Position numbers and translations under genes: made by a program
Source of the DNA: Lobosporangium transversale
Taxonomy: Eukaryota
Assembly: GCF_002105155.1 (NCBI RefSeq)
Contig: NW_019028990.1
Location: 558,001 to 622,000 of the forward strand
Direction of reading: 5' to 3'
DNA length: 64,000 nucleotides
Notes under the pieces: model-generated
Told to the model about the DNA's origin: nothing
Databases searched by the model: none
Seen by the model: the letters and a program-made list of their open reading frames with translations, nothing else
Part shown: positions 18,591 to 34,078 of the stretch, piece after piece
How the letters are laid out: every line of letters starts with the position of its first letter
Numbering within the stretch: position 1 is the first letter of the stretch

Positions 18591-19323
18591 CTCTGCAAAC
18601 ATCTTGTTTGTCGATGCTTTAATTAATCTAGTCTAGTTTAGTCTAATGTGGCCCAAAGTGAGGACAATATGTTAACGATTGTCTTTATAGTGGTCCACTT
18701 AACTTTCAGTGGACATTCTAACAACAGTCCTGCATCGTTCTTAGGGGCTCATTTGCAATAGAAGCTTTTAAGGCTATCATAAACTGTAATCAAAGTTGTA
18801 TTATAGTAAAAGCGGAAAAAGTGATCAGTTGACATGTGGCAAATTCAAATTTATAATCCTTTTCAAATGTCCTCTTCAATGATCATTTCAGTCCTCCTGG
18901 GGAGCAGTTGTAAGCAGAGGAATGAGCAAGTAGAGTGTGAACAAACGTTTATCTGAGCACTAAGGATTGTCACGTCACAATGACCCAGAAAATGGCACGT
19001 GGCTGATTTGAAAAAAATATTTTCTCACGCAAAGCCTAACCTTGAAATAAAGGAACAAATTTATCAGTTGCTCCTTTCTTTCCTTTGCTCCACTTCATTT
19101 TCGCCACCTTTTTCATATTTCACCACTTACCTCTTTTATTCATTCCAAGCCTTCATTTATTGCCTTTCTTTTCCTTTCCTTCTTTTTTTTTTGCCTTACA
19201 CATTTTTCATTATTGTTTCCATACCGTGACCACGGGTGAAAGAGTAAGAATATACTTTTGCCTATTTAGCCATCATTCTCCCTGCATTTCAACCACACTC
19301 AGTCTCACTCATCTTAATTTTCA

Positions 19324-21806
19324 ATGGCCACCACAAGGAGCTCAACACAAAAAAACATGGCTGCAAATGATTCCACAGAGAGCCAAGCACAAAAAAACAT
19401 GGCTGCAAATAAGCCTGAGGATGCCTCCACACTCAATAAACGAAAAAGAGAAAACCAACACCCACAACGAAAAAAGCGCGCCATCCCACTGCTGCTGCAG
19501 CTGAACTGCGTTGTTGAGGGAGAAGCAACGTCGTTCCCAGTAGAGATTTTCTGCGATAAATCGGTCGGGATGCTCAAGCAAGCCATCAAAGCAGAGAAAG
19601 CCAATGCATTTAAGGATATTGACGCTGACCAGCTCACCCTCTACAAGGTCTCCATCCCTGACAAAGGTGAGGTCATCTTTGAGTCAGGAATCGAGTCAAA
19701 AGAGGCTCTCACAATCGCGTCAATGGAGCTTTGGGAGATACTTAATTCTGAACTTCCAAGGAAAACTATCCATGTTTTTGTCAAGCCACCACAGCGAGGT
19801 ATATCTTTGGCTCTTGATGGACTGATTGTTGATATTTCCAGCTGATGAAGCTTGGTTTATATCTTAAACGGCCATGTGCATGATATCACCATTTGGTTTG
19901 TGTCTTGATAACTCAACGTTCTTTCTCATTATTCGCTTTTGATACTTAGCTCAGAAAAGAAAACAAGATGGAGATTCTGGTGAGTTTGGCTGAGAACCTG
20001 GTTATTGATCAATTCAGAGTGATGTGCAGTGCAGAAATCAAAAATATTGACTTTGATCACTCTATCTCCTTTATCAGAGTCACCCTCTAAAAAAGCTCGT
20101 CCAAGTATAAGTAGAGATCCTCTTATGGATGCGATTACAGAAGCAGGGCTTGTAACGAAAGGGATAGTGAATGGTAGCCCTGCCATCTCGCGTCTAAACT
20201 CGAAAGAGAGGGTCAAGCTGCTTTTGTACATGGAGGAGGGGTTATCAGGAGATAGTATTTACTGCAGCATTATTAGCGTGGCTCGCGAGCTCCGAAATTC
20301 TGGTGGTATCAAGGATTCCAAAATATTGACTGCCCCTGAGGGTCGTATCTTCCCTGTTGCCGGAACAAGGCATCTTTATATCAGAGATGAGTATAAAGAG
20401 CTTTATGACCATATTACATCCGAATTAAGTACCCCTCATGAAGTAACTCGTTTGAACCGACTCTTTGTCACTGGAACGCCTGGAATTGGGAAGTCAGCCT
20501 TTTTGGTCTATTTTGCCATCCGCCTCCTTGCCGAACACGATGAGGAAAATCCACCGATTATTATTTTCCATGAGAAGCAGAATACCGAATGTTATGCCTA
20601 CGGAGGAACAACTTGCCAACGTTATGGGGAGAGAGTAGATTTCAAAAATTTCCTTGAGCAACGTGAAACGTGGTATTTAGTTGATAGTGGTGAAAATCCT
20701 CAACCAGGTAAAGCCAGGACGATATTTTCAGCATCGCCAAGAACTCTCTATGGGCATTACGATGAACTCACCAAGGAAAATACACCAGATAGCTACTATC
20801 ATATGTCACTCTGGAGTCTGGATGAGCTTAAGGAATGTAGAGCCAATGTAAAGTTTTTTCATGTAGTGAGTGAAGCATTTTTGGAGGAGCTTTTTTACTA
20901 CTTGGGGGGCGTGCCAAGACAGGTTCTACAGTGTCCAGCCGATGTACTATCCAAAAATCAAAAAAATACTGAGCGTGCTAAAGAGGCTGCGTTATTCCGC
21001 GTCAATAATGCCATTAAAACACTCGAGAAACCAGCAGATCTTCTAAGGCTCTTTGCACGGGGAAAAGAAGCGAGTGAATTTAGTCGTTTACTCCATAGAG
21101 TCCCCACTTCTGACCATCTCGACTTCTACCTGGTGTGGGCATCTCGTTGGGTCGAATCACAGATTATGGACAAAATAAAAGATAACACTTGGGTCGATGT
21201 GTTGGCGAGACTTGTCAAAGGCGGAGAGGATATAGATAAAGGCCCACTGTTTGAAATCTATGCTCATCACTTATTTCGACGTGGTGATATTAGATTTCCC
21301 TTTAGGGATCTCCAGTCAGGCGAAACAGGATTTCTTGATTTCCAGCAAATCCAGAAGAGGTGTTTATCCGGACTTCAGAGGGATTATCAGGGCTCACTCA
21401 AGCAGCTGGCAAGTTGTTTGTACCAGAACATTCTAAATTTCCGTGCATTGATTTTGCATTGGGACCCAACGAGCTATTTCAGGTCACAGTATCAGAGGGG
21501 CATCCGATCAAGCAAGCACCATTCAAGGAGATGATTGATTGTATTACTGGACCCTGCTTGAAGGGAGACCGATCAAAGTCGAAGGGAGACCGATCAAAGT
21601 CGAAGGGAAGTGATGATATTTTCCTCTATTTTGTGGTGCCAGGAGACGTATATAACGATTTTAAAGTTCAGAACTTTCTTACCGCCAGAAATACGGTCGT
21701 CAAGAAGCCATATAAATGCTTAAAACATGTAAGACAGCGTGTCATAAAAATCGACATCGAAGCTGCATATTCAGGAGGATCAGCCGGTACGAATCTGAAG
21801 AATTAA
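19324..21806 (+). pseudogene. Crinkler (CRN) family gene: ubiquitin-like CRN header, P-loop NTPase and REase-fold nuclease; one frameshift
   Basis: Header LNCVVEGE..SFPVEI...LKQAIK...DIDADQLTLYKV...IHVFVKPP. Exons 19324-19798, 19950-19979 and 20078 onward. Walker A VTGTPGIGKS; REase-like FPCID...LFQVTVSEGHPIK in a second frame after a 1-nt deletion at about 21340. Confidence 0.88.
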
Positions 21807-22009: not shown

Positions 22010-24200
22010 ATGCGATCTTGTGTGCAAGAAAAGGCAGGATTTTGTGATACTATTATCAAAGAGTTTTGTAAAAACGGATAGAGATGAAGAATCCTGTGGA
22101 GAACCCAGTGAGAGTCTGATGATGAGACCCAAAACCATATTATTATCACCAGGACAGCTGGCATAGGAAATTATCCTTTCTCGTATGCTTTGTCATCTGG
22201 ATGCTTGCCACTTGCGGAAGACCTATCAATTATCATCATCCAGGGCGCCAAAACGTTTACCGGGAGCTAGGATGACAGCTCCACTCTAAAGACATAAATG
22301 TCCCATGGTGCGCGTGCACGGGATGGCAACCTGTGGCCAATGAGATCATATTAGTTGTATGTTCGGCCAATTTACCCTTTTTACTTGTCCGAAGGTAGAA
22401 TGACGCCTAGCCAATGGATGCTATTGCAAGTGTGTCCACAGGTCCTTGGAGAAGTCCATTGAGGAAACTCGGTTCCATCCAGGACAGATTTATTCCTAGC
22501 GTTCTTCACAAAAGTAGCAGAATTGCTTGGTGGAGTTGGCTTTAATTGCCTTGACAAGCTCCTGCAAGATTGGTTCGACAATCTAATCAGGGTCCTTTCG
22601 GAGCGGCATCAAAGCAACTCTATGTTTTTGGTTGTTTTGAACGAGGCGCAGGATGTGGGGAGGGGAGGCTAAATACCAGTTTATTAATAACGACGACACT
22701 ATGCGACCAATATTATCAGCATTCTTTCATGGATTGGAGGGCTTATCAGAGGATTTACCACGAATTTGCATAGTTCCTTGCGGGATAGGCTTTTGTATTT
22801 ATGATCCTGCTTGGGTTAAGAGAACTGGCAAAGCTTCAAGGAATATCGAGAAATTCTCGATGACTCGAGGTTCAAGAGTGCAGTATCGTTTCCTAGATGG
22901 GATAATCAAGCAAAAGTCCGGACATACTTCAAGACACTTGTGCGATATTTGGAGAAATAAAGTCACTCAAGCTCTGCATCAAAGCGGAGAGGCCATTTTA
23001 ATGATCAAGCAATCGAGATGCTATATGCTTGGTCCTGTGGTCGTCTCCGTCCAATGATCACTATAATAGAGAGCGTCATTGGACGTGCCGATGCAGGCCT
23101 TTGGAAGCAAGAAATCAAGGGCCTGGTGTGGTCGCTCACTGATCCAGGATATAAAGAATCTGGTAACCTATGCCATGAGTAATCTAGGATTCTGAAGCGT
23201 ATTAACAAAGGGGATGCAGGAATTAAAACCACTGTCGACATCAGGGAAACCTTCGGTCGAGCCGTAAAGAATGAATAGATTACTATATAGTAAAGACTTG
23301 ATATTGGAGTACAATGAGCCTGTTCCGGTCGAGGCTTCGTTTGCTCGAATTGTCGTTAATCAAAGGAAGAAGGAGTTTACAATAATCGTTGAGCCAATAG
23401 CATTTATAGCAGCAATTAACTTGTTTGAAGTGGATGACCCTTGATTGGTTAAATTGGTTAATAGTGTGTTGCTAGACGCCCCTACGTCTGGCACAAAGGG
23501 CACACATTTTGAGTATTTCAGTCCCGCTTTGTTAATTTCAATCTTCCAGAATTATAACAATGAACGAATTATTGGATACTCACTGTAACAAAGACTCAAT
23601 ACATGAATCCAAGTTAATCTCGCTCTTTTTTGTTTCCAAAAGAGAACCCATCTGGACCAGATATCGTCTTTGTACTGGAATCGGAGGGTAAATATTATCC
23701 TGGTTCCGTACAGTCAAAAATCGGCGATAAGGTCAAGAATTAAGGATGCCCACAATACACCTTGCCATAATTGCATCAAAGAACACCTCTCATCACCGTC
23801 TTCTCTCGGCTTTTGCTCGAATGGCATATCCTTGTTGCTGTTGTTTAGGCCTTACTTATCACGTTGCCTTATCATGTTGTCTTATCACGAACAGGGTGAT
23901 TATTCGCTAGCTAAAGTCAAAGAAGTTCCTACCATCAAAGACAAACGAATATAAACGACGTACTCAATATTAGCTTGTTGAACTTCCTTGAAAGTGCAAG
24001 GGAGTCCCTCAAGAAGTCAGAATTGACTCGAGCTGTGGAGGATGAGGGAGAAGGAAGCAAGCCCAAAGAACCACAGGCAAGGAGGACATCAAAGAGAATT
24101 GCCGATAAAGCTCAAGCTATGGAGCATCGCCCTAGCTCATGGAATATGAGTCCAACGTTTTCAAGAAGTTTGGGGCTCCTCTTCCAGTTTATGTTTGCGT
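22010..24200 (+). pseudogene. Highly degraded CRN-type NTPase/REase relics
   Basis: Scattered motifs: IIITxTAGIG (about 22140), (D)EAQ...RPILSAF...CIVPCGIG (22640-22790), VEASFAR...IVEPIAF, GTHFEY, and GPDIVFVL...VQSK (about 23654-23720). Many stops and frameshifts. Confidence 0.65.
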
Positions 24201-24610
24201 AGTCTTCATCAGTCAGGTCTTCACCGGCTGCCTTTAAAACACGCCGTGTTAAGGAACCCTTGTGAAAGTTTCAATCCCTGGCTGAGATCTTCTTCATCTA
24301 CGTCAGACTGCTGCTATCTCTTCGTCTGGATTGTGCCATAGGCAAGTGGATTCAGAACAAGGCCATTGGTAGAATCGTCCCTTTGGGTTTGAACCGAGTT
24401 ATACCTTTGTCTTGTGCCTGTAGGGGTACCTTGTCTCGATAGCCATGAAACATGCGATCTCCTTCAATGTCACAAAGAGAGCCTGTATCTAGACCTCTTT
24501 TGTTCCCTGTACACATTCAAACACTGCAGCCTTGGGAGGATTGTCGAGAGGATGTCAGTTAGGACGTGTTCAGACAGATACACATACCGAGGGGGGACGT
24601 AAGGAAGTCT

Positions 24611-24642
<32 letters not shown>

Positions 24643-26051
24643 CCCACTCCATTGTTCTCTGGCAAGAAAAGCTCATCGAACAATAAAAAAAATAGAGAGC
24701 TTTAATAGAGAGCAATCGACTGCAGAATATGCATGAGGATTCTCTACACAAAGTTATATCTTTGTGCTCCTGTGGTGAATACATGGGTAGATTTGACTCG
24801 GTCTGTAGGAACTGATTTGAAACAGGTGGCTACATCCTTGTCAAAGGTAACAACAAAAGAAAAAAGTCTTCTTTCTTCTTTTTATCAGAGAATGGCCTCA
24901 TATGATGCTCTTTGCTCCAACAGCTCCAGCACTTTTGCGTTAAAGCAGAGATATTCGTTGGCTCTCGGGTTCCGGCATCATTGGTGGAGATAGGAGTGAT
25001 GTAGTTGCATGCGCTTATTGCTTGTAGTAAGAACTATCTTAGTACCTTTCCTTACTAGACGACGCCCTGTTAATGGTGATATTGTGCAGCGCCTTGTGGA
25101 AGGAGGGAGAGCAGAAGCGAGATTAATACCGACGCGTTTGATCCTCTCCTAGAAGTATTTTTGATTATGGAGTGATCGCCAAAATAAAGTTTGTTCATTT
25201 CTTCTGGAGGCATCAATGGAAAAGGCTTGTGTTTTAGCAAAATGTGTTTGTGCATGTACAGAAACAAAAGAGATGCTTCAGCTGCTTATTCGTGCACACA
25301 ATGATTGACGAACAAAAAAGGAAAAAGATTTGCCAAATAAAAAAAAAGCCCGCGATAAAAGAAGGCATATGCAGACAACAAATAAACACAGCAACTGTTT
25401 GCTCACATACATTTTTTTCACCGTTGTGTCTGTATCTCTTCTAAGCTTTCTGTCTGGCCGTTTAACACAAGGAACCCTCAGAAAAAGAAATACCTCGCAT
25501 GATTGGTGCCAGGTCTGAAAACAACAATAATGCAATGCTGTACGTGGAAGATAGGGTCTAGAAGCTATACCATTGATCACAACTGCTACTCATGCTCTCT
25601 TGCCAAGGACTTGAACAGGCATACCAACCCCTTCTTCCTTGCTCTCATAACCGCTCACATCCTTTCGATGCATTCTTTCGCCGTTTATGTCCACTACATC
25701 TGAACCACACACAGTTCATCACTCACTCCAACAGAGATATTTGTATCACCTTGGGTATGATATGTTGCTGTGGTTCCCTCTGGTTTCAACAGGCCCAACA
25801 AACTCTATTAGCAGTGATTATCAACCCAAATACATCAAGGGAACGCAAGAAGACAAGCAAATGATGCGACAAATCAAGTCTCGTCGAGCTGTACAGAAAA
25901 AGATCAAGTTAGTCAGGCTGTAGAACGAATCAACTCAGATTGCCTCAATCATACGACGAATATTATCATCACTATATCACATCAATCAATCAATAAACGA
26001 TACAATGAGGCCCCCCAAGCGGACAATGGAGTCATGCGAAAGTCTTCATGA

Positions 26052-27837
26052 GTATTATGGTCTAACCCAACAGTTCGAGAGGAGATAGTCCAATTGTTGG
26101 AACTAAACATGAGTACCAAGGGGGCTGCGGAGGACAAGATCCTTAGCCACAAGGGGATATTGTTGCAGGAGCTGTTTTCCTTGAAAGGATACAAGGACGT
26201 TGGACTGCAATCTGATGATGGCCCTAGAAGGAAACTACGGACATCGTTCTTTACAAACGGCCTTACCCTAACACTTCTTGCCTATGATACATCGAAGCAA
26301 AAAAGAGGTAGAGGTTCGCAAGCTGCCCAACCTTCGGATACTCAAAGATCTCAAGCAGTCCAGGCTTCTTCAAGTGCTCAGCAGGGATCCTCGTCTTCAG
26401 GCCATGGTGCAGGTGATGGTGGTGATGATGGAGACGACGACGGAAATGAAGATGACGATATCTTGCTGGGTATCAGCGATATTGACTTGCTCGAAGTTGA
26501 TGAACCATTCTTAGATGGCGAAGAGGGAGAAGAAGCAGCTGAAGAAGGTACATCGAGCACAAATCCACTGTTCCCGGTGAGTCCCAGTCCCCGGCGTGAG
26601 ATCAACTGGAAGCAGAGATCCCGTCTCCTCGAGAATGTAGAAGTTAAATATGACACCCAGGCAGCATGCCCTCCCCCCGAAAGTACCATTATCATTGGGA
26701 TCGATCCAGGCGAGAGGTACTCGATGACAATTGCAAAGTTGGATCCAAGGGAACCTAACGAACGTGAGATCCTCCGGATTTCTAGAGCGTACCTTTACAA
26801 ACCATCCAAGAAGTTTCAGGGCGAGCTAGAGAGGCGAAAGCTTAGAAGAGGAATTACAGAGATTGAAAGCAATATTCCGTCATTCTCAAGGCCTACTTTA
26901 ACACAGTATTCCGCTTATATGAGCTTGCGCTAAATCAAGCTCCATCAAGTACTGGAGGTAGTTTCTCTGGTAGTGGGGTTGGGGCCAGTAGAGCAGGGAC
27001 CGGTAGTAGCAGTGGAGTTGAGGCCAGTAGTAGCAGTGGATCTGGGACCAGTGACGACAATAGGGAGACTATATATAGGGCGCTTGTCGATTTCTATAAT
27101 GACGGGTGGTTTGTTCGGAATAGCTGGGATATTAGAAAAGCACAGAACGGATGCGTTGATTATGTGATCAAGGCAATTCTGAAGCTTGCGGGCGGAAGCA
27201 ATGGAAGAAGAAGAGATGCCAATACGAATGCGGTGATCTGTATTGGACTAGGATCATTCAAGACAAACCGAGGACAAGTATCGAAGCATGGGATATTGAT
27301 GAAGAAGCTTGTTGAAAAGGTAAAAAAAAAATCCCTTGATCAATGACATTCAATTTTTGAGTCTCTTTTTTAACGAGTATTAAATCTGGCTCGAACAGGC
27401 AAAATCTCTAGACTACCCCATTGTAGGTTGTCATGAATACTACACATCTGCCAAGTGTCCACGGCCTCACTGTGACAGTATATTGGAGAATGTTCCTTTT
27501 CGATCCAAGTACTGCCGAAATTGTAAAGCATACTTTGATCGAGATGCTGTTGGTGCTGAGAACATCGCAAGGGTCTGTGAGTCGCAGATAAGAGAGCAAA
27601 AACGACCTGCAAAATATATATATGCCGCCGGACGGAGGAACTCAAGGCCAAGCTTCTAGCGGTAGTGGCGGCGGTGGAGGTAGTGGTGGCAGTGGTGGCA
27701 GTGGTGGTGGTAGTAGCAGATCCACAAAAAGGAAATTTTCAGATGAAGGAGGAGGAGGAGTAGAGGGATCAAGACCACCGAAAGGGCCTTTGCTGGGTCC
27801 AGGAGGAGGGGGAGAGACAAGCCGACAACAACAGTAG
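26052..27837 (+). pseudogene. Fanzor1 (eukaryotic TnpB/Cas12-like RuvC nuclease), 5'-truncated and frameshifted, with one intron
   Basis: SFFTNGLTLTLLAYD; RuvC-I IIIGIDPGER (D at 26703); after a frameshift near 26920, LVDFYN..F.RNSWDIRKAQ...D.VIKAILKLAGGS and VICIGLGSF. GT-AG intron 27320-27398. Final exon IVGCHEYYTSAKCPRPHC...YCRNC...FDRDAVGAENI...RPAKY (E at 27435, D at 27543). Confidence 0.9.
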
Positions 27838-27854
27838 GACACAATCTACTACAA

Positions 27855-28042
27855 ACATGACTAGGTCCAGAAAGGCCTTCGTCTTAAAAAAATTGGTTTG
27901 ATAGTACTTTTTTTTCTTGGTTAATTTATTTATTTATTTATTTATTTCTGTGTTCTAATACATTTCTTCTTTTTACAATAGATGGAATGTCTCGTTTTTT
28001 AATGGGACGGACTATATTAATGCGTTTTAATAGGACGGACTA
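27855..28042 (+). ncRNA. Candidate Fanzor omegaRNA scaffold / transposon right end
   Basis: Lies directly 3' of the Fanzor ORF. Hairpin AGGTC-CAGAAA-GGCCT; CGTCTTAAAAAA can pair with TTTTTTAA(TGG)GACG; ends in two copies of TTTTAAT(G/A)GGACGGACTA. Assignment is inferred from position. Confidence 0.45.
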
Positions 28043-28463
28043 TCCCTTGAACCGTAATAAGGGCAAATATGCCCTTATAACCTTATTCTACCCACAATGT
28101 ACTGTATTTAGTTTTCTCGAAAAGTTATTAAGTCACGGTCACCCCTTTCCTAAGCCAGATCGAAAGTACGCAAAAAATTACATCGGCTTGGCAACTCATT
28201 CATTCTTTTTATCGCCATTCTCGTAAAGCAGAGCCCAATATATTCCTATTCTAAAATGATTATTGAATTGATTTTGTGGCTTTTATTTTTGATGACGGGC
28301 TTATTACAGGCAAACTTATTTAACATTTGAAAGGCGCTATTGGCTGCAAAGCCTGCAATACATTCGAAGGTTACTCAAAAAATATATAATGTACCACCAT
28401 AAATGTTACATTGGTCCACTACGGCATTTTTATAAGGGCAAATATGCCTTACGGTTTAAGGGA
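28043..28463. mobile_element. MITE (about 420 bp) with TA target-site duplication, inserted at the putative Fanzor element end
   Basis: Left TA|TCCCTTGAACCGTAATAAGGGCAAATATGCCCTTATA; reverse complement of right TA|TCCCTTAAACCGTAAGGCATATTTGCCCTTATA. Confidence 0.8.
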
Positions 28464-28465
28464 TA

Positions 28466-29168
28466 GAATTAATCTATTTGACAACCCGGGTTGTCACTCT
28501 TATTTGACAACCCCCCCCTTAATTATTTTTCTCAATTTTTTTTCTTTGCGTGACAACCCGGGGTTGCCAAATAGTAAAATATCTAATTTGACAACCCCAA
28601 GCTCACTATTATTTGACAACCCTTTTTTATTGGCAAGATTATTATGTGAAAATCGTTTCTATTGCTATCCCTCAGCAACATGAAATCCCTCCAGCAATCT
28701 AAAAGCTTCCATCAAATAACAAACTTTTTTTTTTTGGTTACGAGGTTTTTTATTACAACTGATTTCTAAAACAAGGGTTTGCTTTTATAGAAAATGTGCC
28801 TATACGGGTAACATGCACTAAGGGGTTTTTTTGGATAAATAAGCATGCATAAATTCGGAGTGGTTATGCGACGCTTGATGGCGCATGCGTAAGACGCGGA
28901 AAGGAAAAAAAAGAGAGACAGAAGAAGCTATAACCACAGTCATGATAATGGAGTGTTGCCACCATTTTAGAAATCCAGCTGAGAAAGGTCCTCCATAAGT
29001 ACAAGAGGGTGAAGACTTGTCATGTGACAGGTTGAAAAAGACAATTTTTCTTCTTTTTTTGACAACCCGGGTTGTCAAATAACAAAAAAGTGAAAATTGA
29101 AGACCTGGGTTGCCAAATAAGCCGGTGTGACTGCTAAATTAGGGGGGGGTTGTCAAATAGATTCACCC
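28466..29168. mobile_element. Non-autonomous Mutator-like (MULE) element, 703 bp
   Basis: Exact 9-bp TSD TAAGGGATA at 28457-28465 and 29169-29177. TIR core AATCTATTTGACAACCC at both ends; multiple internal TGACAACCC / GGGTTG(T/C)CA motifs. Confidence 0.85.
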
Positions 29169-29247
29169 TAAGGGATAAGAATAAAGCCAATTTTGATCTC
29201 CACGTGACACAACACAAGCCTCAAAAAAGAAAAATCATACACAAACA

Positions 29248-30360
29248 GTGGCTTGATGCTCAATTGAGATGACGGCCATTTGACCCTGGAGCATTATATT
29301 TGACATAGTTTTATTGACAGGCTAGCGCTCACAATCAGAAGCAAAAAAAAAATCATCTCTTGATTGCATTTGTTTCAAGCATCTCGTCGACGTGCTCAAA
29401 ATGACTGGTACTTTTCGAAGATCTCCTTGGGCTCTGGGCTCATGACAAAGAGCGTAGAAAGGGTATTATTCTCATCATAGGCGACGTCATAGAACCACTT
29501 GTTGGTTGCTAGGTCCTGCATCGCGCCTGGAAAAGAGCCGAAGCCCCCGCGATCTTTTCGATCTTGCAGCATAACTAGGTTCTGTATATCACAAGTAGTT
29601 AGAATACTACCCCAAGGTTGGGCCTGATATAGCTGGACAATCTCTTTGGGTTTGACGCCGTAATGATAACAATCGAGAATCCACTTATTATCTTCTTCAG
29701 GCCTTCGTTGAGCGATAAGACTGGTATGAAGATCACCGAGCGCGTGGTTGTGTACAAGCAAATGTTATTGGGCTTGAATGATTCGCCTTGCCGTGTGACA
29801 TGGATGAAAAAAGGGCAATCATTAAGTTTCGAGCCTACATTCTGACGAATCAGATCTTTACCATCAGTAATGAGGTTGGTTCGGTACTTACCACCATAGG
29901 CACATGCCAAATGTATGAACTTGGCTGAACAAGAGCGAGTCTTGAGGGCAAATCCGTACGCCAATGCGATTTGCATGTAATAATTCTTTGCCGCAATCGA
30001 GGTCTCGAATTCTTATCATTCAAAATATCTGACATATCAATTTCGATAGCTTTCAAAGATTGATTATCATTATTTTCTGTAACACCGTCGGAGTCAGCAA
30101 TAGGCTCCCATGATCAGAGCCAATAGTTGCTAAATCGACCGGATTGGGGGGCGTTGCTTCTGGGGCAGTAGCGCCTAACAGCTTGAAGCCAAGATCCGAC
30201 ACTGTTAAGTCATCGCTCAATACGCTGGTGGTGTCGAGGTCTGGCATAGCTGCAATGAAAATTACCGAAGTGGAGAAGGAATATGTAAAAAAAAAAACAA
30301 TTTGGGGCAATGTTCGTCAATTGAGATGTCTGACCACAGCCTCAAGCCACCTACACCCCT
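29248..30360 (-). mobile_element. MULE/FAR1-type transposase remnant (N-terminal WRKY-GCM1-like domain) with degenerate TIRs
   Basis: AYGFAL...LACAYGGKYR...SKLNDCPF...HNH and WFYDV...LSTLFVMSPE over several frames. GTGGCTTGA(T/G)GCT..CAATTGA is inverted at about 29248 and 30350. Confidence 0.75.
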
Positions 30361-30539: not shown

Positions 30540-33025
30540 ATGGCAGACAACGACACCACTGAGTTTAGCGCTGATAACGTTGATACAAATATTACATTTG
30601 CAGACCTTGGATTGGACGACAGGCTTCTGCGAGGTCTCGCGAAACTCAACTTTACAAAACCTACACCTGTACAGGCAAAGTCTATCCCGCTTGCTTTGGC
30701 TGGCAAAGATATTTTAGCCAAAGCAAGGACAGGAAGCGGAAAAACAGCTGCCTTTATGCTGCCGCTTATTCATAAGATTTTAGCTGCCAAAGATGTATGG
30801 TTTTGTTAAATTATTTTGTCTCGTTTTTATTTGACTAATTACATCAATCAAGGGTTACTCTGCTCAAAGATCAATATTAACAATATATATTGCTATATGC
30901 AATGTAATACCTTGAGTCGTTTTTAGGCCTTACCCACCAACTCCCCTGAAACTACTGCAACTCGAGGACTGGTCCTTGTGCCTACTGTTGAATTAGCAGG
31001 ACAAGTCACAGCCTTTACCAACAACATTCTCCTCTTCTGTGGCCGTGCTGTGAATGTGCTCAACATTGCTGGAAAACAGAATGACAAAGTTCAACAGTAA
31101 GCTTCTTATTCATTTGACCACATATTGCCAATCTTTATTACATTTATCTCACAACTCAGATTCATTTTTTTTCCCTCTTTCCCCTAGGCCTCTATTGGCG
31201 ACACAGCCCGATATTATTGTTGCAACACCCTCCAGGATCCTTGCACAATTAAAGATAAATGCTGTGGATCTGAAAACACATTTCCAAACATTAGTCATTG
31301 ACGAGGCAGATCTAGTCTGCAATTACGATTATCAGGAGGATGTCAAGGAACTATTGACGTTCCTTCCAAAGATTTATCAGAGTTTTCTTATGTCAGCTAC
31401 ATTGGGAGATGATGTCGATTCACTCAAACAATTGGTTCTACGTTCACCAGCAGTCTTGAAGATGGAGGACAAAACAATGGATTCATCCTGGGACAATTTG
31501 AAACAACTCTACACGGTCTGCACAGAGACAGACAAATACTTGATTCTATATGTATTGTTGAAGCTCAAGTTACTGAAGGGCAAATGCATCATCTTTGTGA
31601 ATGACATTGAACGTTGCTACCGCCTGAAATTGTTCTTGGAGCAGTTCTCGATCCCCAGTGTAGTTTTGAACTCGGAACTTCCTTTGAACTCGCGTGTACA
31701 TATCGTGGAAGAATTCAACAAAGGAAAATATGATTACATGATTGCCACGGATGAGAGTGGACTCAAGGGCGAGAAGGAGGAAGGCGAGAAGGAGGAAGAC
31801 GAGTCTATTAAGGTAATTAAGGAAGGAGAAGAGGAGGATGGGGATGAGCAAGATGAAGGCGAAGACGATAAAGAGGAGGAGGGAGAAGAAGATAATATTC
31901 CAGAAGGTGAGATTGAGATGGAATTAGATGGACTAGACGGCGAGGATCTTGATGGAAGTGAGGATGAGATGGAGGTTATGATGAGAGCAAGTGATAATGA
32001 TGAGGATGAGGATGAAGCGACTGCGCTTGAAGAAATGGGTGAAAAGTCAACCACTAGCTCTAAGAAGCGGAAACAACCTGAAGAAGATGCAAAGTCTGAG
32101 TCAACTACAAATGCTACTGGATCAACAAAATCCAAAAAGAAGCTGGGACCCAAGAAGGATCAGGAATATGGTGTCTCGCGCGGTATTGACTTTGTGAATG
32201 TCGCTGCAGTCGTCAACTTTGATTTCCCACCAACAGCAAAATCATATACACATCGTGTGGGACGTACGGCCCGTGGTGGTCAAATGGGTACTAGCTTGAG
32301 CTTTGTAGTCACAGCAGAGCAAAAGGAAAAGGCCCTCAAGGCTAGTCAAATTGCTGGAGGTGGAGGTTGGGCTCATTTGCAAGGCAATGACGAGGCTGTC
32401 TTCAATCGGGTTATGAAGCAACAAACTGGTATGCTTGTCTATCATGAAAGTAATGTCAGCTCACAAGTAAATGATTGTTGATTGAGATGAATACTAATTG
32501 TCAATCTGCTATTTATTAATTCATTTACCTAAATGGTCAATAGCTGCAGGATGCATAATCAATCCTTATACCATTCCTATGCAACAGCTTGCAGGCTTTA
32601 GGTATCGTATGGATGATGCCATGCGCGCTATCACTAAGAGTTCGATTCGTGAAGCCCGCTTGAAGGAACTCAAGGCAGAGATGCTTAATTCTGAGAAACT
32701 TCGAGCTCATTTTGAAGACAAGCCCAAGGACTTAGAGTTTTTGCGTCATGACAAGACACTACACCCAACACGGGTACAGCCCCATATGAAGCATGTCCCC
32801 GAATATATGATGCCCAGGGTACAGGCAGTGTCTACAGAAAAGGTTGGAGAGACTTCTCTGGGTCTGGGACCAGTGACATACAAGAAGAAGCCTCAAAACT
32901 CTGTAAGGAAAGCTCGGCAGAACAAGGGCAAGGGTGCTCATGGAGGTGGTAAAAAGAACGACCCACTCAAGAAGTTCAGTTTTGGAGGTGGAAACAAGAA
33001 TGGAAAGAGACAAAAGACTGCATAG
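30540..33025 (+). CDS. DBP9: ATP-dependent DEAD-box RNA helicase DBP9/DDX56
   Basis: Q motif, [33 protein letters not shown] and LRHDK; multi-exon. Confidence 0.93.
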
Positions 33026-33034
33026 AGAAAACCA

Positions 33035-33068
<34 letters not shown>

Positions 33069-34078
33069 CATTTCTGGCATTTCATCTACTATCTAATAAA
33101 CTCTATTAAGCATATTATACTTTATTAATTTGGCTGGAGAAAGTCTTGGCCGTACTTTTGAATAGCTCGATTTGCATACTCAATGCAGCTGAAAATCCAA
33201 CTGCATCACGTCGCCGATCACGATCAATCAACCCCTAATCTTACTCCATTCTAAAAAAGATAGGTTTTTATGCCCGTATAAAATGTCTTGTCTGGTTTCT
33301 CGCAACAGGCTCGTGAAGTCTTCGATTACCTCCTTCTCCGTAGCGTTGAATCTCCTAGGAGGGTTCTGGGCGAGAATCTGAAAGCGGGCATGCGTCTCTA
33401 CCCCTGTCCTTGTCTTCTTTTTTCAATTTCCACATCAGTTTCTGACGTGCAGACAATCAACTGCACTATTTGCTTTTTAAATTCTTCTTCAACGTTGATG
33501 GCTTTCTGTATTTCAACACATTCCCCTCGGCAAATCAGGAGACAGGTCATAGGCACCATGTGTTGGGTGCCGTAAAGACGAAGCCCCAGCTGTTCGGAGT
33601 ACAGTGCCGCAATATAACCTTGATCTTATCCGAGCGCCACTTTCTTTTGTGCTCTTTTATGTCCTAAGAGTCCTACACTTGGACTCGAATGTACAGTGAA
33701 GGCCATAGAGCATTATTGTGATTGTTTAGGCATTTTGATATATCATATACGAATGGAATATGAGAAAGAGAGATTGTTTAGTGCACGCAATGACAAGTAA
33801 ATAATAATAAAAGAAACTACAAGGGCAAGGACGAGTTCGCCTAGAGACCCAAAATACGCAATATCGTTTTAATCTAAAACTATCTCTCTCAATAAACCAA
33901 CAACTACAATAATTTATAGTTATTATAATTGATGCAGATACAAGAAAAGTGGTAAGGAAACATATAGGAAAGATAAAACGTCTGCAGTTGAAGGTGCAAA
34001 TTACTGGATAGTGATGACTTCTTGGCAGTTGAAAAGAATATCTCGGCCAACGTATTATCGTTGAAGACTTTTAATTTG

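Follow-up and report, generated by a model that had tools for sequence, protein, structure and literature searches.

The guide RNAs (omegaRNAs) of Fanzor nucleases are derived from 3' non-coding sequence directly adjoining the right end of the element, and they extend into the non-conserved flank beyond it (PMC13565253; PMC10530073). For the Fanzor1 (Fz1) type, guides of 150 nucleotides (nt; GtFz1), 90 nt (SpuFz1) and 75 nt (PpFz1) have been described, with a conserved first stem-loop (SL1) of 7 base pairs (bp), a single variable second stem-loop (SL2) in the two fungal ones and then the guide segment, the region beyond SL1 being little constrained (Xu et al., 2024, PMC11423790). Here we describe a locus of this kind in a 64,000-nt stretch of eukaryotic DNA from Lobosporangium transversale (assembly GCF_002105155.1, contig NW_019028990.1, positions 558,001 to 622,000 of the forward strand; hereafter the window, with position 1 as its first letter), where the remnant of a Fz1-type nuclease gene is followed, between its stop codon and the right end of the element, by a candidate spliceosomal intron within the stretch that would form the omegaRNA scaffold.

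As with the omegaRNAs of SpuFz1 (Spizellomyces punctatus) and PpFz1 (Parasitella parasitica), the candidate guide region lies at the 3' non-coding end and abuts the right end (PMC10432273; PMC11423790), and its predicted layout is likewise compact, with SL1 and one SL2 followed by a flank-derived guide. It differs from both in that the predicted hairpins are parted in the DNA by an intron-like segment of 86-87 nt, and in that the predicted SL1 has 5+3 pairs rather than 7; by eye, without alignment, there is no RNA sequence similarity to these guides. The CrFNuc-1 gene of Chlamydomonas reinhardtii also contains introns, with small RNAs mapping to the 3' untranslated region (3'UTR) of its mRNA and with guide-only copies, whereas the introns reported there lie in the coding gene and none in the guide region (PMC10530073). 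Its carrier is a Helitron2 (PMC10530073), while the window copy has no left end to show what carries it. A further likeness is to bacterial IStrons (IS605/IS607 elements that carry a group I intron as well as TnpB and an omegaRNA; Zedaveinyte et al., PMC10690162), in which one stretch of transposon RNA is both intron and guide sequence, so that splicing and guide production are coupled. There, a self-splicing group I ribozyme acts as the intron and takes up the entire element, and splicing is described as incompatible with maturation of the guide (PMC10690162), whereas here a small intron of the spliceosomal type would sit inside the scaffold region and may aid, rather than oppose, a compact scaffold. 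If taken in its canonical GT..AG form, the segment also resembles the ordinary 3'UTR introns of eukaryotic mRNAs in being short and downstream of the stop codon of a gene probably transcribed by RNA polymerase II (Pol II), and differs from them in its place 34 nt short of a transposon end, with a presumed scaffold hairpin on either side.

A Joined Form of the 3' Untranslated Region

No run on record as RNA was listed for this stretch; splicing is indicated by X1, the one public sequencing run listed as containing it, whose kind is only guessed ("RNA?"), its library not being on record. X1 contigs, which inform on presence only, were compared with the window over 25400-28700 (3.3 kb), where they give no cover at 27904-27951 (27908-27956 being repeat-masked) and 28064-28396. 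One contig of 519 nt follows the window over 27397-27894 with 4 base differences, joins 27982 and stops at 28015, thereby skipping 87 nt (27895..27981, + strand; 86 nt in the canonical GT..AG form, 27896-27981). This joint (27894>27982) shows no microhomology (both=0), continues for 34 nt past the junction, occurs in one contig and was recovered again in a narrower comparison at 80% likeness. The same contig is continuous with the last Fanzor coding exon.

Part of this had been foreseen. The preliminary description of the locus had placed an acceptor at the CAATAG ending at 27981, and its AG (27980-27981) is matched exactly by the X1 joint. The donor that it put first, GTTTGA from 27896, agrees with the joint to within one base and not exactly, since the skip begins at 27895, and the other donor that it offered, GTACTT at 27904, is not used in this contig.

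Both X1 joints found over the compared 3.3 kb correspond to intron-like segments. The other one falls on a 79-nt GT..AG intron of the coding region (27320..27398, + strand; joint 27317>27397, cut +2, in one contig), and paralogous proteins require its removal, with the L. transversale paralogue P0001 running LVEK/AKSLDYP across it; it thus serves as an internal positive control. A second contig retains this coding intron alongside the contig that skips it, which is the picture expected of RNA.

The candidate intron carries the signals that such a segment would need: GTTTGA from 27896, a branch-like CTAAT at 27955-27959 (23 nt before the AG), a pyrimidine tract at 27963-27975 that includes a 12-nt pyrimidine run, and CAATAG ending at 27981, all of them, with GTACTT at 27904, present where they had been named beforehand. 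It also holds an (ATTT)6 microsatellite, begins 57 nt after the stop codon, ends 34 nt before the right end of the element, and has a G+C content of 18.6% vs. 38% in both flanking pieces. Its length of 86-87 nt falls inside the range of the four host introns seen (79-258 nt), namely the coding intron above and three from the neighboring helicase P0007 in a spliced alignment (258 nt, GTACAG..TAG; 91 nt, GTAAGC..TAG; 115 nt, GTATGC..CAATAG; 100% identity over the aligned 87% of the query exon), the last of which ends in the same CAATAG acceptor. Two further P0007 "introns" (33020-33308 and 33309-33552) were discarded as artefacts of the alignment running beyond the protein end. An ad hoc scan (GTNNG, 60-120 nt, CTRAY 12-40 nt before YAG, ≥70% pyrimidines between), whose criteria were picked after the candidate was seen and are failed by the Fanzor coding intron, returned only 12 segments in 128 kb (both strands; 8 on the + strand), among which 27896-27981 is the only one in 27000-28500. 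This suggests that such a set of signals is rare in the window.

Since the joint was predicted beforehand and lacks microhomology, the signals are intron-like and the one other joint corresponds to a bona fide intron, we consider it quite probable that 27895/27896-27981 is a real intron.

Several observations weigh against this reading and against the role in guide production considered below. At the donor, GTTTGA has T at +3 where 4/4 host donors have A (GTAAAA in the coding intron), and the piece skipped is GG..AG on the window copy, the GT beginning one base on, at 27896. Of the two G's at 27895-27896 the X1 contig has only one, and all indels between window and contigs sit in homopolymers or microsatellites, so the simplest reading is an expressed copy with ATT/GTTTGA; a canonical GT..AG intron does need that copy to be one G shorter. 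X1 is itself only guessed to be RNA, all support comes from contigs showing presence only, and no X1 contig has one copy both spliced and unspliced at 27895-27981. Among the five listed contigs covering 27845-27895 the joint occurs in one, while the other four leave the window sequence at 27890-27895, one with a short donor-less insert (CCTGCTAATG...) and two continuing AAAGTATTAGC...; the segment therefore varies among copies, at the DNA or the transcript level, and a copy with a clean deletion is conceivable. In addition, the last 25 nt of the intron (27957-27981) are kept in both listed contigs that lead from exon 2 into flanking sequence, so that molecules combining a retained intron with a flank do exist, whether as RNA or as DNA. 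Finally, the 5+3 pairs of the predicted SL1 depart from the 7 of known Fz1 guides.

Some of these points would also suit a reading without splicing, which we regard as unlikely, in which an AT-rich, hypervariable and indel-prone spacer ((ATTT)6, T runs) separates two conserved hairpins and the 519-nt contig comes from a copy that lacks the spacer in its DNA, X1 being either DNA or RNA of such a copy. The guessed kind of X1, the GG..AG form of the skipped piece, the differences among other copies in the same interval (one with a shorter donor-less insert), the confinement of every indel between window and contigs to homopolymers or microsatellites, and the unbranched passage of the contig across the joint, where spliced and unspliced RNA of one copy together might have produced a branch, are all compatible with it. 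Such a deletion would, however, have its right edge exactly after an AG that had been predicted in advance from the branch, the pyrimidine tract and the acceptor, and its left edge within one base of the predicted GT, with no microhomology, and the remaining joint of the compared 3.3 kb falls on a bona fide GT..AG coding intron seen in both forms. To read that second joint as DNA, one would have to assume that a DNA transposon has processed genomic copies free of the intron.

Predicted Folding of the Candidate Guide Region

The candidate intron sits in the last ~170 nt before the right end, where published Fz1 guide scaffolds lie, in agreement with the right-end location given in the preliminary description. 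The first part of the 3'UTR (27838..27895, + strand) extends from the stop codon to the candidate intron and holds the predicted SL1 (27859-27884), whose core is the hairpin AGGTC/CAGAAA/GGCCT that had been pointed out at 27863-27878, as well as an A7 run; its second part, exon 2 (27982..28015, + strand), holds a T6 run, ends at the right end of the element and coincides with the predicted terminal hairpin SL2.

When the spliced RNA was folded (27858-27894 joined to 27982-28015, 71 nt), both the minimum free energy (MFE) structure and the centroid consisted of SL1, a 10-nt A-rich linker and a hairpin made of exactly exon 2 (-19.5 kcal/mol). In SL2, 27988-27996 pairs with 28001-28009, and an outer 4 bp joins 27982-27985 to 28012-28015 (9+4 bp); eight of the nine inner pairs have probabilities of 0.87-0.99 in both the spliced and the unspliced form, the outermost falling to 0.27 when unspliced. 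With an energy of -10.7 kcal/mol, equalled by 2/1000 shuffles, the predicted terminal hairpin is significant, and SL1 moderately so (-8.6 kcal/mol for 27858-27885 vs. -3.8 ± 2.1 shuffled, 28/1000 as good). The pairs of SL1 have probabilities of 0.78-0.97 in the spliced RNA vs. ~0.15 in the unspliced one, and SL1 is thus predicted to need splicing for its stability. Measured from SL1 to the right end, the spliced form has 66-71 nt (91 nt from the stop codon), which fits the compact scaffold that had been proposed.

The same proposal had the intron bracketed by two complementary arms, which are present (CGTCTTAAAAAA at 27880-27891 and TTTTTTAATGGGACG at 27995-28009), while their pairing finds no support as a structural frame. 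The duplex, at -11.7 kcal/mol, equals the mean of mononucleotide shuffles (449/1000 as good), the pair probabilities are ≤0.003, and enforcing the arms costs 8.4 kcal/mol in the spliced and 6.3 kcal/mol in the unspliced RNA. The 3' arm belongs instead to the local hairpin wholly within 27982-28015, and the arms formed the MFE stem only in a modelled variant without 27990-27991, the form of one X1 contig. We therefore rejected the arms as a favored structure, being no better than chance and disfavored in folding.

The Nuclease Gene and Its Family

The gene upstream (26053..27837, + strand, stop codon TAG at 27835-27837) is the remnant of a Fz1-type nuclease, truncated at its 5' end and carrying two frame shifts. 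Its largest exon is 97% identical to L. transversale P0001 (551 amino acids, aa), which has four further paralogues in this species, and a relative from Benniella is 37% identical; a library-wide search returned 454 relatives at E ≤0.001. The Cas12f1-like TNB domain (Pfam PF07282) is recognized above its curated cut-off both on 27384-27656 (E 2e-7) and on P0001 (E 4e-8). A profile of 25 relatives matches SpuFz1, the solved Fanzor1 of S. punctatus (8gkh), with E 2.6e-9 and, more weakly, mimivirus L79, Cas12f, LaTranC and GtFz1 of Guillardia. With the single sequence of P0001 as query, phmmer against the PDB gave nothing but Gly/Ser-linker and low-complexity matches; these spurious hits to artificial GS linkers reflect the Gly/Ser-rich low-complexity C-terminal tail of the nuclease (27650-27834), which also bears a KRKF motif resembling a nuclear localisation signal. 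A search of metagenomes with the C-terminal 144 aa of P0001 yielded 112 pattern matches and no relative.

Among the 25 aligned relatives, the RuvC residues D199, E420 and D456 are kept in 23, 23 and 18 (4 gaps), respectively, and the zinc-finger cysteines are conserved as well, each of these residues being kept in 18-23 of the 25. E420 stands 7 residues ahead of C427, the first zinc-finger cysteine, and a RuvC glutamate relocated to shortly before the zinc finger is the arrangement described for Fanzors (PMC13565253). Judged from these conserved residues and from the profile match to SpuFz1, the protein family looks functional.

The window copy is another matter. Its tblastn pieces are spread over three frames, ~176 N-terminal residues of paralogue P0002 have no tblastn match anywhere in the window, and the reading frame is broken near 26927 and near 27614-27620 relative both to P0001 and to the X1 contigs, in which an extra C behind 26927 and the absence of 4 nt at 27614 restore it. 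The window thus holds no intact Fanzor open reading frame, the N-terminal part being gone and the frame shifted twice, nor is there a second copy in it (blastn self-comparison; tblastn with 6 paralogues). By its sequence the window copy is dead, either as a pseudogene or because the assembly carries indel errors, and the evidence for splicing derives from paralogous copies. Four relatives from other genomes (P0006, P0129, P0134 and P0136) are 1008-1160 aa long with the TNB domain at the extreme C-terminus, so the annotated L. transversale models (551-675 aa) may be incomplete; Pfam added no domain at E ≤0.001 on the long N-terminal parts of these relatives.

Right End and Flanking Sequence

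Two X1 contigs covering 27957-28015/28018 extend a further 103 and 252 nt, with continuations that differ from each other and from the window. These three different continuations mark the right end of the repeated unit at 28015/28018. By the Fanzor/TnpB layout, the guide segment of the window copy would occupy the flank past it (28016..28035, + strand). A 678-nt X1 contig matches only from 27846 (27846-27895), with unrelated sequence before and a different intron interval (AAAGTATTAGC...); a module from 27846 to the right end therefore seems to exist apart from the nuclease gene as well, as a ghost or deletion-derivative copy.

Directly downstream lies a second, partial right-end tip (28019..28043, + strand; AATG..CGTTTTAATAGGACGGACTAT) that lacks the 5' strand of the hairpin. 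The direct repeat D17 (27997-28015 vs. 28025-28043) is 95% identical, and GGACGGACTAT occurs exactly twice in the window, with 3 matches at one mismatch, a number reached by 0/100 shuffles. The tandem arrangement (AATG..CGTTTT..AATRGGACGGACTAT, 28019-28043 vs. 27985-28015) is absent from the two X1 flanks, and the second tip could have been left behind by an older insertion at this spot or have arisen during repair. Inside it begins a unit resembling a miniature inverted-repeat transposable element (MITE), ~427 nt long (28040-28466) with terminal inverted repeats of ~41 nt (CTATCCCTTGAACCGTAATAAGGGCAAATATGCC...), followed at 28464-29170 by another MITE-like structure, which has inverted ends and contains the palindrome TTTGACAACCCGGGTTGTCAAA several times (28475-28496, 29058-29081). 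Across 24000-30000, Rfam at E ≤1 found no ribozyme family and no family in the candidate guide region; three weak sub-threshold matches to microRNA models fall outside it, on the TTTGACAACCCGGGTTGTCAAA palindromes. The right-end motif hit 3 metagenomic loci, all by chance, with similarity over only 19-22 nt.

A Proposed Path from Spliced Transcript to Guide

We propose, with a probability of about 0.5, that 27895/27896-27981 is a spliceosomal intron in the 3'UTR of a multi-copy Fz1-type gene, inside the stretch that would give the omegaRNA scaffold, and that the spliced transcript feeds guide production; this figure refers to no more than some contribution of splicing to guide production. Because a contig of a probable RNA data set lacks exactly the intron-like segment, the guide RNA of this family is likely to be cut from a spliced transcript, and a mature guide in spliced form is plausible. 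In this scheme Pol II would transcribe the gene, its 3'UTR and the right end and continue into the flank. With runs of T6 and T8 in the region, a product of RNA polymerase III is unlikely and Pol II the better candidate. Poly-U stretches had to be removed for U6 expression (Jiang et al., 2023, PMC10530073). The spliceosome would then remove the intron, the joined form being present in one contig, and so place SL1 (27859-27884) within ~10 nt of SL2 (27982-28015). The expected product would be a two-hairpin scaffold of 66-71 nt followed by the copy-specific flank as guide, and the mature guide would be cut out of this spliced, messenger-type RNA. It is tempting to go further and to regard the two scaffold hairpins as separate exons that must be joined by intron removal, so that nuclear splicing would gate both guide and nuclease activity; we hold this stronger version as tentative and rather doubtful.

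Alternatively, the intron may be real and the working guide unspliced, or splicing may compete with guide production, in which case splicing would serve the messenger, as a mark for nonsense-mediated decay (NMD) or a means of tuning nuclease levels. The exon junction lies 57-58 nt after the stop codon, a position on which the 50-55-nt rule for NMD bears. Intron-retaining transcripts, carrying SL2 and the flank, would then feed the guides, a eukaryotic counterpart of the conflict between intron and guide in IStrons, for which splicing that antagonises the omegaRNA is a precedent (PMC10690162). The two listed flank-reaching contigs that both keep the last 25 nt of the intron agree with this, as do the prediction of SL2 in both forms (inner pairs mostly at 0.87-0.97 when unspliced), the weak constraint on the region beyond SL1 and the length of the GtFz1 guide (150 nt; PMC11423790), close to that of the unspliced form here (157 nt). 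Yet SL1 would largely be lost without splicing (~0.15 vs. 0.78-0.97), it is the spliced contig that connects to the coding exon and reaches the right end, and contigs cannot give ratios of forms. We find an unspliced guide, or competition between splicing and guide production, improbable.

Least probable is that no guide is used at this position, the system being domesticated or decayed or its omegaRNA encoded elsewhere, with the segment an ordinary 3'UTR intron: the window copy is dead, the L. transversale models are short (551-675 vs. 1008-1160 aa in relatives) and the nuclease activity and RNA binding of the clade are putative, but against this stand the conserved catalytic residues and zinc finger, the multi-copy family with copy-specific flanks past a sharp right end, the significant terminal hairpin, and the 27846-to-end module detached from the gene, comparable to the guide-only copies of Chlamydomonas (PMC10530073).

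Other Features of the Window

Elsewhere in the window, a Crinkler effector N-terminal domain (PF20147, E 7.9e-21) is encoded at 19318-19842 (+ strand), followed by a long open frame without Pfam match (20023-21531). Poly-T and poly-A tracts of 25-40 nt occur on both strands across the window (e.g., 24606-24646).

Implications for Fanzor Guide Production

Among the papers listed by full-text literature searches, none describes a Fanzor guide with a spliceosomal intron in it, a result that guide annotations in the supplements of PMC10432273 and PMC10530073 may yet qualify. In the text available for each source, the string "spliceosom" occurs 0 times in a 2026 review of OMEGA systems (PMC13565253) and the main text of Saito et al. 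(2023, PMC10432273) does not contain "intron", while Jiang et al. (PMC10530073) mention introns in coding genes only, Xu et al. (PMC11423790) mention splicing once and in another context, and the IStron preprint (PMC10690162) refers to spliceosomal introns only in passing.

The production of Fanzor guides in native hosts is largely open, published guides coming mostly from heterologous expression or co-purification, and the present locus offers a directly testable case, with spliced and unspliced RNAs for one nuclease. If the scaffold is interrupted by an intron, guides would be Pol II products of the messenger type rather than those of dedicated small-RNA genes, and genomic sequence alone would mispredict the scaffold, so that mining pipelines based on DNA folding would miss or mis-size guides. 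Splicing would then also be a possible control point that couples nuclease mRNA and guide or trades one for the other, in parallel to IStrons. Should the version in which splicing is required hold true, it would provide the first case of an RNA-guided nuclease with a guide scaffold put together by the spliceosome.

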